A stretch of DNA of 63,768 bases, counting the filler, from Craspedostauros australis (lineage: Eukaryota): the NCBI GenBank assembly GCA_030167865.1. It is 9 parts of 9 records of this genome, joined end to end, with 100 filler letters (N's around TTAATTAATTAA, not from the genome) between each part and the next. Parts side by side here need not be neighbours in the genome. Positions count along the whole stretch, not along the records: positions 35,235 to 46,566 come from JALAGF010004880.1; 8 more parts are not named here. One strand, written 5' to 3'. The notes under the pieces were generated by a model, which was not told the origin of the DNA, ran no database searches, and worked only from the letters and a program-made list of their open reading frames with translations. The position numbers were made by a program, and so were the translations under genes. Of this stretch, positions 36,410 to 45,500 are shown piece by piece; the stretch's first letter is position 1, and every line of letters starts with the position of its first letter.

Positions 36410-37427
36410 ATGCCGAATGTTACGAACCAACAACTCCTTGGTGCTGCCAAGGCAGGTGACTTGTTGGTGTTGAAGGAATGGAAGAAGCAGAGCATGACAC
36501 AGAATGAAGGAGTTGATGTCAACATGGTTACAGACTGGATGGGTTCCCCTCCCCTCCATTGGGCATGCTGCAACGGCCAGCTGGAGTGTGTGAAGTACCT
36601 CGTTGAATCATGTGAGGCGAACATCAACTGCAAAGACAACCATGGTTCCACTCCCCTTCATTGGGCATGCGACAGCGGCCAGCTGGAGTGTGTGAAGTAC
36701 CTCATTGAATCATGTGAGGCGAACATCAACTGCCAAAACATCGATGGTTTCACTCCCCTTCATTGGGCATGCAACAGCGGCCAGCTGGAGTGTGTGAAAT
36801 ACCTCATCGAATCATGTGAGGCGAACATCAACTGCCAAAACAACAGTGGTTCCACTCCCCTTCATTGGGCATGCCGCGAAGGCCAGCTGGAGTGTGTGAA
36901 GTACCTCATTGAATCATGTGAGGCGGACATCAACCGCCAAAACTGCTATGGTCGGACTCCCCTTCATTTGGCATGCCACAGCGGCCAGCTGGAGTGTGCG
37001 AAGTACCTCATTGAATCATGTGAGGCGAACGTCAACTGCCAAAACTACTATGGTCGGACTCCCCTTCATTTGGCATGCCACAGCGGCCAGCTGGAGTGTG
37101 TGAAGTACCTCATTGAATCATGTGAGGCGAACATCAACTGCCAAAACAACAATGGTGACACTCCCCTTCATTGGGCATGCCACAGCGGCCAGCTGGAGTG
37201 CGTGGAGTACCTCACCAAATCAGGTGGAGCGAACATCAACTGCCGAAACAACAATGGTTCCACTCCCCTTCATTGGGCATGCCACAACGACAAGCTGGAG
37301 TGTATCGAGTCCCTCATTAGAGGACTTTCGCCTTCAGTTCACCCACAACTGCAACAACGCTGGCAACAAAACGAGCAAGAGAATGAACAACCACAAGAAC
37401 AGTTGGGACAGCAGTTGAAGCCGAAGG

Positions 37428-37458
<31 letters not shown>

Positions 37459-37540
37459 GTCGAGACACCAGTTGAAGCGAAAGAGCCAAGAGGATGAACA
37501 CAAACACAGTAACCACAAGAGGACCAACGTCAGCATTTGA
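36410..37540 (+). CDS. Ankyrin-repeat protein, copy 1 (N-cap + 8 repeats of 34 aa/102 bp + Gln-rich tail)
   Basis: Tandem G-x-TPLH-x-AC-xx-GQLECVKYLIESCEANINC units. ATG at 36410. Confidence 0.92.
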
Positions 37541-42361: not shown

Positions 42362-44366
42362 GATGAGATGGATGGGCCGCTCCGTACTCGTATCATACTC
42401 ATAGAGGTGTGGTAGACTCACTTCACTGTAATTTAATACACCTACGAATGGATTGTAATGTTCTATGATATGTAGGATTGGAACAGTACCGCATGCACTA
42501 TATCTGCTTGTGCAATAGAGCACTGTGATGAAGTCACCAGATGTGTCAAGAGATTGAAGGGCTGGATACTGCTCCCAGGCTGCCTCTGCCTCGTCTACGA
42601 CGAATATGGTCCGCTCTCTGCGGTACATACGCACACAGAGATGTTGCCGATGTCATTCACGAGCAGATTGGACGTCCGTGGTTCCATCTACGCTCCGCCA
42701 TGAGCATCATTGTTGGTTCATTGCGCAGACAATGGACGCAAGGCAGCAGCATCTTCACAAGCCTTGCGGTCGTCACAGAGCAGTCGTCACCGTGCCGCCG
42801 GATTCGCACACAGAGCACTCTCCACTCCAAGTCACACACTGCCAAGCCGATTCAAAGCTACAGTGCCGATGCCAGCCGATCCAAGTTTGTGGAAGAGACG
42901 ATCTACGAAGAGCACATGGCGAACAAGGCAGAGGGAAATGATGGGAAGCCGCGAGGAGCATGGTTGCTGCACGGTTCCATCGACCGTCTCGTATCGCGCT
43001 ATTGTCCTCATCTCGCCAGGAGTTGCACTCTCGTCATTGCGCCAACACTGCAGTCGAGACCCTCGCCAAGTCTCAGGAGGAGCCATCACTCGCGGTTACA
43101 GCAACAGATGCCGGGGTCACCATCCATTCCAATCTTCGAAGCGAGCAGTGACAGCGTGGCGGAAAGACAAGAACCGACGAGCCAGCGCAGCCCAAGCATC
43201 CAGAGAGCTTGACGAGCAACAGAAGAAACCAACGAACCAACCAACCAACGAGCAACCCCATGCAGAGTGCGAGTGCTGTATTGCGGATCATGGTTGACAC
43301 AGAGATCCATTTTGGCACAAGAAGCACACGGCCAGCAATCCATGGCCCATGGATACCGTATACTCACATGTCCTCCTTCGTGGTGCTCCCAACTTCGTTG
43401 ATGAGGCGGATGTTCCTGTCGATCACCTCGGTTGGGCATCGATGCTCTGGAAGTCACGAGCCAAGACGGCGGTGCTTCTGCCTGTGGATAGAACGCGCAT
43501 GGTATTGTATGTTGGTGGTCCGTGCGGCAGGAACAGTGGAGGCGGCACGGTATCGCTCCGCCTGATGCTTGCCGAACATGCCAACTCATCCCAATACGCA
43601 ATGGGGTGTTGGTTGGATGTTGAGGACTCTTGTTGCCTGTGCGGATGGTGATTGTTGCAATGCGGTGGGATGGCAACCAGCCAAATCCAAATGAGATGGG
43701 TTGAAACCAACCAAGGCAGTCACATCGGTGACTAGATCGTTGTTCGAGGCATTGGCTCACACCTCAAGTTGGTGCTTGCGATGGCAGGCGGACGGGGGTC
43801 AGCGGCCTTGCAGATGCCACGATGACGCAGGCAAGCGTGGGCCATGGTGCACATGGTGGTTGTGGCGGTGGTGGTGACGATGACAGCTCTCTGTGTTTCT
43901 GAAGACTTTGACGTTGTTTGCTTCGGATTAGTGTTGCGTTGATTGTGGCCAAACGAGAACTCTGTTGTGGTGCTTCTTTCTTGTTGTTGGTCGCACGCAT
44001 TTTCGTGATGGATGGAAACAGAAAGATCCAATCCGCGCGAACCAGACGCGTTTGATCAAGAGAAGGAGACAAACACAGGCAAACAGAAGGAAGAGACCAT
44101 GCGAACAAGGCAACCGCACACACCACTCAACCCCCTACTCGAACACGCCAACAACAGACATCGAATTGCCACTCATATTCATCACACAGCGTATGGTACT
44201 CATACTCATACTCATACAAGCTGTTGCATACACAAACATCGATATCTCTTCCATAGGCAGCTCCGACCACAGACATCCTCGACAGCCAATCCAACGTAAA
44301 TCGTCCAACGTCCAACGTCCAACGTCCAGCAACCATCGACCATCGACCATCCACCACACTCCCAAA

Positions 44367-45500
44367 ATGCCGAGTGTTACCAACCAACAACTCCTTGATG
44401 CTGCCAAGGCAGGTGACTTGTCAGTGTTGAAGGAGTGGAAGAAGCAGAACGAGACACATAATGAAGGAGATGGTGTCAACTTCAAAACCAACGAGGGTTG
44501 GACTCCCCTTCATTGGGCATGCTACAACGGCCAGCTGGAGTGTGTCAAGTACCTCATCGAATCATGTGAGGCGGATATCAACTGCAAAGACAACTATGGT
44601 CACACTCTCTTTCATCTGGCATGCTGGAACGGCCACCTGGAGTGTGTCAAGTACCTCATTGAATCATGTGAGGCGAACATCAACTGCAAAGCCAACAATG
44701 GTTCCACTCCCCTTCATCAGGCATGCTACAACAGCCAGCTGGAGTGTGTCAAGTACCTCATTGAATCATGTGAGGCGAACATCAACTGCCAAAGCAATGA
44801 TGGTTCCACTCCCCTTCATTGGGCATGCCACAACGGCCACCTGGAGTGTGTGAAGTACCTCATTGAATCATGTGAGGCGAACATCAACTGCCAAAGCAAC
44901 GATGGTATCACTCCCCTTCATTGGGCATGCCACGAAGGCCAGCTGGAGTGTGTGAAGTACCTCATTGAATCATGTGAGGCGAACATCAACTGCCAAAGCA
45001 ATGATGGTTCCACTCCCCTTCATGTGGCATGCCGCAAAGGCGGGCTGGAGTGTGTGAAGTACCTCATTGAATCATGTGAGGCGAACATCAACTGCCAAAG
45101 CAATGATGGTTCCACTCCCCTTCATTTGGCATGCCACAACGGCCACCTGGAGTGCATGGAGTACCTCATCGAATCATGTGAGGCAGACATCAACCGCCAA
45201 AACAACGATGGTTCCACTCCCCTTCATTGGGCATGCCACAACGGCCAGCTGGAGTGTATCGAGTCCCTCATTAGAGGACTTTCGCCTTCAGTTCACCCAC
45301 AACTGGAACAACGCTTGCAACAAAACGAGCAAGAGAATGAACAACCACAAGAACAGTTGGGACAGCAGTTGAAGCCGAAGGAACAAGAGAATGAACAACA
45401 ACAACAACAACAACAACAGTCGAGACACCAGTTGAAGCGAAAGAAGCAAGAGAATGAACACAAACACAGTAACCACAAGAGGACCAACGTCAGCATTTGA
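44367..45500 (+). CDS. Ankyrin-repeat protein, copy 2 (N-cap + 8 repeats + Gln-rich tail)
   Basis: Same 102-bp repeat scaffold as 36410-37540. ATG at 44367. Confidence 0.92.
   Translation: MPSVTNQQLLDAAKAGDLSVLKEWKKQNETHNEGDGVNFKTNEGWTPLHWACYNGQLECVKYLIESCEADINCKDNYGHTLFHLACWNGHLECVKYLIESCEANINCKANNGSTPLHQACYNSQLECVKYLIESCEANINCQSNDGSTPLHWACHNGHLECVKYLIESCEANINCQSNDGITPLHWACHEGQLECVKYLIESCEANINCQSNDGSTPLHVACRKGGLECVKYLIESCEANINCQSNDGSTPLHLACHNGHLECMEYLIESCEADINRQNNDGSTPLHWACHNGQLECIESLIRGLSPSVHPQLEQRLQQNEQENEQPQEQLGQQLKPKEQENEQQQQQQQQSRHQLKRKKQENEHKHSNHKRTNVSI

Follow-up and report, generated by a model that had tools for sequence, protein, structure and literature searches.

In a 63,768-nucleotide stretch of the genome of Craspedostauros australis (the window; diatom nuclear DNA in draft state, with 28 runs of N and 1350 N in total), two genes, which we refer to as gene A and gene B, each carry an array of eight 102 bp ankyrin units, and the codons of the predicted target-binding face of these units exhibit a significant excess of nonsynonymous change within a scaffold that is kept much alike from unit to unit. 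We consider it probable, though with real doubt attached, that genes A and B are two tandemly duplicated members of a family of ankyrin plus SPOP-type BTB proteins, in which the repeats are homogenised, the binding-face residues are under selection and the BTB half was lost later. The coordinates of all features are collected in Table 1.

Two arrays with variation confined to a few codons

The initial annotation of the window, made from the sequence alone, had described two arrays comprising 16 repeats of a 102 bp ankyrin unit, and this was borne out by Tandem Repeats Finder at period 102 (36542–37318, 7.6 copies, 89% matches; 44476–45272, 7.8 copies, 88%) and by the codon register, in which each gene holds eight units of 34 codons (8 + 8), the eighth unit of either gene being a diverged C-terminal cap. 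Ankyrin families were the only Pfam matches of the two ankyrin open-reading frames (PF00023/PF12796; 295 bits in gene A, E-value 1.7e-91, and 288 bits in gene B, against a cut-off of 21.1; eight stretches each), and no NACHT or NB-ARC match was present. The canonical 33-residue ankyrin period was not found, unit length being 34 residues in 16/16 units and also in the ankyrin-BTB relatives described below; judged from sequence, this period is best taken as a variant length, which does not exclude ankyrin membership. An AlphaFold2 model of gene A (single sequence input, pLDDT 66) has a helix pair in each unit, and its best Foldseek matches are designed ankyrin repeat proteins (DARPins) and ankyrins (probability 1.00; 4o60 and 6mok, TM-score 0.75). 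The array of gene A is accordingly modelled, at that level of confidence in the prediction, as an ankyrin solenoid of helix-turn-helix plus hairpin units.

Variation statistics refer to the 14 internal units, the C-cap units A8 and B8 being excluded. The 48-nt scaffold given in the initial annotation recurs with at most three mismatches in 11 of all 16 units (six in A, five in B), where 100 shuffles gave an expectation of 0. Ten of the 34 codons show no change at any base, the framework-only sequence is identical in A2, A6, B4, B5 and B6, and the framework is cysteine-rich (four Cys per unit). Amino-acid entropy exceeds 1 bit at nine unit codons (2, 7, 10, 11, 13, 31, 32, 33 and 34), with 16, 14 and 5 distinct variant states at codon positions 1, 2 and 3, respectively. 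Nucleotide diversity is 0.084 at 4-fold sites versus 0.42 (0.419) at positions 1–2 of the six codons that align with randomised DARPin positions. Every residue that had been listed for the hairpin pairs, before TPLH, after H and after AC was recovered as written. Two accompanying statements hold in weaker form: a fixed third codon position is a tendency, not a strict rule, and a scaffold nearly invariant even at silent sites is a roughly correct description, 4-fold diversity being low and not zero.

The placement of these codons on the binding face comes from HMMER alignment to the solved DARPins 6mol_A and 5le2_A, in which the TPLH motifs fall in register, repeat for repeat, the window unit having one extra residue after helix 2. 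The repeats of these two DARPins differ mutually at the columns matching unit codons 31, 33, 34, 2, 10 and 11, which we take to be DARPin positions 33, 2, 3, 5, 13 and 14. The ANK-N5C library, designed from natural-repeat entropy, randomised positions 2, 3, 5, 10 and 13, and position 33 was also treated (available portion of PMC4308713). Unit codons 2, 7, 10 and 34 correspond to ankyrin positions 5, 10, 13 and 3, all four of which are in the ANK-N5C set and three in the DARPin set. Alignments and library design (the latter as described in that portion) agree with the earlier statement that the variable positions are largely those randomised in DARPins. The likeness to designed ankyrin libraries (DARPins, ANK-N5C; PDB 4o60, 6mol, 5le2) lies in a constant consensus framework with confined variation, and positions 2, 3, 5, 10, 13, 14 and 33 are common to both (PMC4308713, same portion). 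Unlike DARPins, the window arrays are natural, have 34 residues per unit in place of 33, carry four Cys per unit and vary at positions 16 and 1 too, and their binding is only predicted.

Table 1. Features of genes A and B and mobile-element fragments in the window (positions count along the whole stretch).
Feature	Position	Strand	Remark
Segmental duplication, copy A	36057–38311	+	blastn against 44011–46272: 88.1% identity, 2290 columns
Segmental duplication, copy B	44011–46272	+	end falls within the BTB/BACK-like coding part
Gene A, ankyrin open-reading frame	36410–37540	+	376 amino acids, Met to TGA
Gene A, N-terminal cap	36410–36541	+	44 codons, common to relatives; aligns with P0121 N-terminus
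Gene A, array	36542–37357	+	8 units × 102 bp; A1–A7 internal, A8 C-cap
Gene A, Gln-rich linker with CAA run	37358–37537	+	
In-frame TGA common to A and B	37538–37540 (A); 45498–45500 (B)	+	sense codon in relatives
Gene A, BTB first-half remnant, shifted frame	37546–37728	+	tblastn with P0121 349–403, frame +1
Gene A, 1-base deletion relative to B	~37548/37549	+	shifts frame just past TGA
Four-C run, one-base frame change between BTB halves	37730–37733 (A); 45691–45694 (B)	+	P0121 and P0122 unshifted
Gene A, BTB second half and BACK-like C-terminal domain	37734–38399	+	open to TGA 38397–38399
Gene B, ankyrin open-reading frame	44367–45500	+	377 amino acids, Met to TGA
Gene B, array	44496–45311	+	8 units × 102 bp (B1–B8)
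Second in-frame stop TAA, gene B only	45522–45524	+	aligns with CAA in A
Gene B, BTB first-half remnant	45540–45689	+	
Gene B, BTB second half and BACK-like part	45695–46270	+	last ~40 codons missing
Copia-type fragments (RVT_2; gag and Pol beta-barrel)	29679–30836 and 58766–61043	+	interrupted by N gaps

Probable selection at the predicted binding face

The six DARPin-aligned codons were chosen before testing. They hold 510 of the 966 nonsynonymous pairwise differences, a share equalled by 4 of 100,000 random six-codon sets, and by the Nei-Gojobori method the proportion of nonsynonymous differences (pN) is 0.365 at these codons, the framework having a pN of 0.076 and a proportion of synonymous differences (pS) of 0.106. 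A less demanding explanation of such figures is relaxed constraint alone, in which one unit was recently amplified and its exposed positions drift at omega ~1 with no diversifying selection. Consistent with drift, the same positions vary most across natural ankyrin repeats (as reported in the portion of PMC4308713 cited above), both genes are disrupted downstream, where the BTB-N remnant described below has a pN/pS of 0.8, and measured against their own few synonymous sites (2.6) the six codons reach a pN/pS of only 1.47.

Goldman-Yang codon models, in our own implementation and on an IQ-TREE topology, gave an omega of 1.42 under M0 and, in a partition model, 4.66 at the six codons versus 0.91 elsewhere; for the six codons, the likelihood ratio test (LRT) against omega = 1, which is the value expected from drift, was 21.8. 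Models with a positively selected class were favoured (M1a/M2a 35.1; M8a/M8 34.9), including in the comparison of M7 with M8 that the initial annotation had proposed (35.6 on the 14 units), with 12.6% of sites in a class of omega 8.4 and posterior probabilities of at least 0.99 for positive selection at unit codons 2, 7, 10 and 34. The single tree that these models assume is wrong in principle, because the units exchange sequence. A tree-free lower bound, in which each column's distinct codons were joined by minimum spanning trees, comes to 25 nonsynonymous changes in the six codons versus 11 synonymous changes in the whole unit (rate ratio 3.0, binomial p = 0.0011). Forward simulations of 14 units, with the six codons neutral, omega 0.4 elsewhere and frequent gene conversion in 40- or 15-nt tracts, were calibrated on the third-position diversity of the real units and passed through the same neighbour-joining pipeline as the real data, for which the LRT was 21.36; this value was reached with omega >1 in 1 of 270 neutral replicates. 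The maximum diversity at positions 1–2 of the six codons in 200 neutral replicates was 0.265, whereas 0.419 is observed, against 0.084 at the 4-fold sites. Variable codons alternate with 4-fold-invariant codons at a scale of one to four codons, which conversion tracts cannot explain and which likewise speaks against drift. The partition model, the tree-free count and the simulations all sustain the diversifying selection proposed in the initial annotation, as a significant nonsynonymous excess at the binding-face codons, and we regard relaxed constraint alone as unlikely. Under the preferred reading, a duplicated pair with selected binding faces, we infer that this excess reflects changing or diverse targets.

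Ankyrin and BTB relatives

BTB-like sequence, missed in the initial annotation, lies 3' of each ankyrin open-reading frame. The arrays thereby correspond to the N-terminal half of an ancestral protein of ankyrin plus SPOP-type BTB, as seen in a 607-residue protein, P0121, and its relatives. P0121 is a single open-reading frame with an N-cap as in genes A and B; eight 34-residue ankyrin units that are not homogenised are followed by a linker, a BTB domain and a helical domain at the C-terminus. With the C-terminal BTB part of the window copies (BTB-C) as query, 51 proteins were recovered at E ≤0.001 among 1.84 billion protein representatives, and those of the relatives that are named are C. australis transcriptome proteins. 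A Pfam scan covered 18 of the 51, four short fragments and the weaker matches being excluded: seven have ankyrin plus BTB (BTB scores of 24–34 bits), seven have MATH with BTB and/or SPOP-type BACK, and four have BTB or BACK alone. The window's own BTB/BACK fragment scores below the Pfam cut-offs (BTB 17.4 bits vs. 20.5; BACK_BPM_SPOP 18 bits vs. 27.4).

A structural model of another relative, P0132 (17-sequence alignment, pLDDT 75), is closest to full-length SPOP and the SPOP BTB domain (TM-score 0.80–0.83; 4j8z, 0.83), followed by KLHL11, KBTBD2-CUL3 and the vaccinia A55 BTB-BACK bound to cullin-3; P0132 is only 34% identical to the window BTB remnant. In the available portions of PMC4091423 and PMC6883508, MATH-BTB proteins are described as CUL3-ligase substrate adaptors. 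By sequence homology, the ancestral protein was presumably a CUL3 substrate adaptor in which the ankyrin array took the place of MATH.

The closest BTB-C relative is P0122 (cluster members P0292 and P0293), with 68% identity and a length of 238 residues, and 64% identity to gene A over 220 residues. It begins at a Met within the first BTB half, on contigs of 1513–2672 bases, and its upstream part may be broken as in the window copies.

Lesions downstream of the arrays

Neither window copy contains a single frame running through ankyrin, BTB and BACK (Table 1). If its stops are read through, gene B aligns without a gap to P0121 and to P0123, a further relative, from the linker into the BTB domain, so the shared TGA and the TAA of gene B replace sense codons. 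The homology of the relatives ends at 46270 in gene B, which is the duplication boundary, and reaches 38393 in gene A. Given stops and frameshifts in the BTB half of both copies, these are at most ankyrin-only genes with a Gln-rich tail, or young pseudogenes. The frameshift at the C run could be an assembly error, if the assembly has errors; the stops are not explained in this way.

Three ways of rescuing the reading frame were rejected. A GT-AG intron at the first junction (71/72-nt candidate) would remove residues that align with the relatives, and gene B is collinear without it; at the second frame change an intron would not fit; and an alternative genetic code is contradicted by the Nrap (1221 amino acids) and STT3 (712 amino acids) genes of the window, which are open under the standard code. 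Contigs of a public run, X1, contained no splice-like joint from the ankyrin open-reading frame to the BTB part, although such contigs cannot show absence.

Homogenisation and mosaic divergence

Concerted evolution, proposed in the initial annotation, is in keeping with a comparison of repeat identity in which the last unit of each protein was omitted. Mean identity between repeats is 0.76 in gene A and 0.78 in gene B (maxima 88% and 91%), versus 0.29–0.62 in eight other proteins, namely the seven ankyrin-BTB relatives (0.29–0.62) and the best generic ankyrin match (0.60). All compared proteins have the 34-residue period, and P0121 also has eight units.

Divergence between genes A and B changes from part to part. 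The upstream DNA is 78% identical; pS is 0.13 in the N-cap, 0.085 in the framework of units 1–7 and 0.081 in BTB-C; and in the BTB-N remnant (37579–37728 vs. 45540–45689) pS is 0.126 and pN 0.101, a pN/pS of 0.8. Such mosaic divergence fits repeated gene conversion, as read from the sequence, and is not proof of it. The pN/pS of 0.39 in BTB-C suggests that the BTB loss was recent, or that this part was converted from intact paralogues.

The BTB-N remnant is much more diverged than its flanks, with a sharp mosaic boundary near 37680. Unit 8 and the Gln-rich linker (37256–37537 vs. 45210–45497) differ by eight nonsynonymous and no synonymous changes over 92 codons (0/51 synonymous sites), and the CAA run carries a 6-base indel between A and B.

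Family size

Run X1, whose type is unrecorded, holds 26% of the sampled words of 36057–46056. It gives neither copy number nor expression, and 1691 of its 30,610 contigs match 35600–46560 with an identity of at least 90%, of which 353 reach ≥99%, 615 fall at 95–99% and 723 at 90–95%; 544 fit two places. Two other runs, X2 and X3, contain almost none of this sequence. Some X1 joints omit 208–628 bases inside the arrays or switch between A and B, and a few other letters occur at the variable codons. These contigs suggest many further copies with other binding-face residues, that is, a large family, and they make it unlikely that only two copies exist, in line with the wider repertoire first proposed. 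The joints skipping 208–628 bases are a hint of repeat-number polymorphism.

The same data bear on the possibility that the arrays are assembly artefacts, with reads of paralogues merged, arrays chimeric and some of the lesions erroneous. In favour of this are the draft state of the assembly, with its 28 runs of N, the position of one frameshift in a run of four C and, in run X1, many related contigs that fit two places as well as joints that skip bases or jump between A and B. Both arrays nevertheless keep open frames of 376 and 377 amino acids, 353 of the 1691 contigs are at least 99% identical to the stretch, TGA and TAA are substitutions and not homopolymer slips, and the variation seen unit by unit is independent of the order of the units. 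An artefact of this kind is, in our estimation, quite unlikely.

Searches elsewhere gave little. A 24-nt scaffold pattern returned no metagenome contig; P0122 as query gave 64 pattern matches and no confirmed locus in metagenomes, and the BTB alignment as query gave 85 pattern matches and no confirmed locus in viral sequences. A protein search with the ankyrin open-reading frame found generic ankyrin proteins only (best identity 49% among the 120 listed of 2450 matches), and there was no near-identical protein among 8000 scored candidates, those with the most shared words (206–658 amino acids). No publication on ankyrin-BTB families in diatoms was found among diatom, BTB, ankyrin and ubiquitin-ligase papers judged by title.

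Proposed explanation and its weak points

The reading that we prefer, of tandemly duplicated ankyrin plus SPOP-type BTB genes under binding-face selection, would run as follows. The family's ancestral product would have joined an N-terminal 34-residue ankyrin array to a SPOP-type BTB/BACK part, and the array would, by homology, choose the substrate for a CUL3 ubiquitin ligase. Unequal exchange or gene conversion would keep the internal repeats alike, both within and between copies, a step that we infer because divergence is mosaic and the relatives are not homogenised. Selection would drive or maintain amino-acid differences on the canonical target-binding face, which is made up of the tip of the hairpin, the residue preceding TPLH and the first helix. 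The BTB half would have been lost later, through one stop and one frameshift common to both copies and through lesions private to each, and what is left would be ankyrin-only genes or young pseudogenes of a large birth-and-death family.

Several points weigh against this account. The BTB domain is disrupted in both window copies, which makes present function doubtful, and the CUL3 role is drawn from homologues that are 34–68% identical in the BTB part and not from the window's broken domain. Besides the modest pN/pS obtained when the six codons are measured only by the synonymous sites within them, the nominal p-values of the codon models are too small because one tree is assumed for units that exchange sequence, and the simulated error rate of about 1 in 270 holds under a simple model of our own. 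The sample consists of 14 short units from a single draft assembly, in which the units and their order may be chimeras of paralogues. That the arrays are free of stops is weak evidence for constraint, the probability of no stop under neutrality being 0.06–0.10. Hypervariability of the hairpin, claimed in the initial annotation, is confirmed as regards the residue pairs but fails in gene B, where four consecutive units (B3–B6) all have QSND, a hairpin that is homogenised, not hypervariable. The identity between repeats (76–78% in amino acids) also falls short of the criterion of 85% over at least 100 amino acids that is applied to fungal NLRs in the available portion of PMC4986451.

A bolder extension, speculative and in our view rather unlikely, is that diatoms possess a large and rapidly diversifying intracellular recognition repertoire of ankyrin plus SPOP-type BTB proteins, in which every homogenised array, through binding-face residues of its own, would direct CUL3 ubiquitination of a different foreign protein (viral or parasite) or non-self protein, with truncated copies such as A and B serving as donors of conversion cassettes; if true, this would be a ubiquitin-ligase-based counterpart of fungal NLR repertoires.

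Targeted mutagenesis in place of selection, by a diversity-generating retroelement (DGR) or by site-directed hypermutation, is very improbable. DGR variable regions undergo adenine mutagenesis, and many of the variable codons are of the AAC/AAT type, changed at positions 1–2; yet variant states arise from consensus A/C/G/T in the proportions 12/12/6/5 and so are not adenine-specific, the sole reverse-transcriptase matches of the window are the copia-type RVT_2 fragments at 29679–30836, no template copy of the unit occurs elsewhere in the window, and the host is a eukaryote. The arrays were also considered as a DGR target as such and rejected, since neither a template repeat, nor a linked DGR-type reverse transcriptase, nor adenine specificity was found in the window.

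Relation to known systems

The WD40, TPR and ankyrin repeats of fungal NLRs are near-identical within a gene, for which concerted evolution by repeat exchange was proposed, and they form large variable families with positive selection at a handful of positions, in ankyrins on the concave face (inner helix plus hairpin), whilst highly conserved internal repeats are globally rare (Dyrka et al. 2014, PMC4986451, available portion). Like them (same portion of PMC4986451), the arrays of genes A and B have repeats that stay similar to one another and positively selected positions on the binding face, and they probably belong to a large variable family. They differ in that the relatives carry a C-terminal SPOP-type BTB/BACK in place of an N-terminal NACHT/NB-ARC NTPase, in the diatom host and in the 34-residue unit. 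The regime of conserved repeats with hypervariable sites is therefore already known from fungal NLRs, and what would be new here is its occurrence in a diatom family of SPOP-type BTB proteins.

Adaptive evolution of ubiquitin-ligase adapters was reportedly described by Thomas in 2006. The MATH-BTB (SPOP/BPM) CUL3 adaptors are the nearest known system on the BTB side, in that the BTB/BACK fold of the relative P0132 is nearest to SPOP and other relatives carry MATH. Lineage-specific expansions of MATH-BTB genes, as described in the available portions of PMC4091423 and PMC6883508, offer a second likeness, in the expansion of the family and the rapid evolution of its substrate-binding domain. In contrast to MATH-BTB proteins, the substrate module is an ankyrin array, it is homogenised tandem repeats that diversify, and the window copies are without an intact BTB domain.

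The repeats of TAL effectors are tandem 102 bp, 34-residue units, near-identical except for a few hypervariable residues that set specificity. Unit length and hypervariable residues make this an analogy only, the fold being unrelated, the target DNA and the system bacterial.

Diatoms are attacked by viruses, oomycetes and chytrids, and we know of no variable recognition repertoire that has been defined in them. A family that combines a homogenised scaffold, selected binding-face residues and a ubiquitin-ligase adaptor domain would provide a candidate set for infection studies. It would also take the regime of hypervariable sites within conserved repeats beyond fungal NLRs, into a different eukaryotic supergroup with a different effector logic. 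In addition, the arrays serve as a natural experiment on where ankyrin repeats accept or reward variation, and the answer is nearly the same set that protein engineers chose. The significance of all this is tempered by the broken copies and the draft assembly, and an immune role is hypothetical.

Neighbouring sequence

Other open-reading frames of the window encode Tim17, Nrap, STT3, thioredoxin and DUF1501 proteins, in addition to the copia-type retrotransposon fragments. The closest named relatives of the STT3 are from Nitzschia inconspicua (71% identity), Bacillariaceae, Nitzschia sp., Cylindrotheca, Seminavis and Fragilariopsis (66–71%), in agreement with the diatom host to which the window had been assigned.

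Between the two ankyrin genes, at 40188–42361 (+), lie long overlapping frames rich in Ser, Arg and His with no Pfam match. Also intergenic is 42554–43651, where the summed X1 depth is very high (1000–2100), at least 18 distinct X1 contigs cover the variant site 43151 and the open-reading frames have no Pfam match; the stretch probably represents a mobile element or a repeat of high copy number. Far upstream, an open-reading frame with an AAA_16 ATPase match (4963–6378, +; 39.8 bits) is followed by a 987-residue open-reading frame without a Pfam match (6485–9445, +), and going by their sequence the two could together be a STAND-type NTPase gene. On the minus strand at ~52110–52300 an unrelated ankyrin-repeat fragment adjoins an N gap (P0121 233–282 against 52137–52292, 38% identity). 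Beyond it are two inverted repeat pairs, 52377–52828 with 54192–54648 and 52876–53071 with 53767–53962, which share 79% and 81% identity, respectively.

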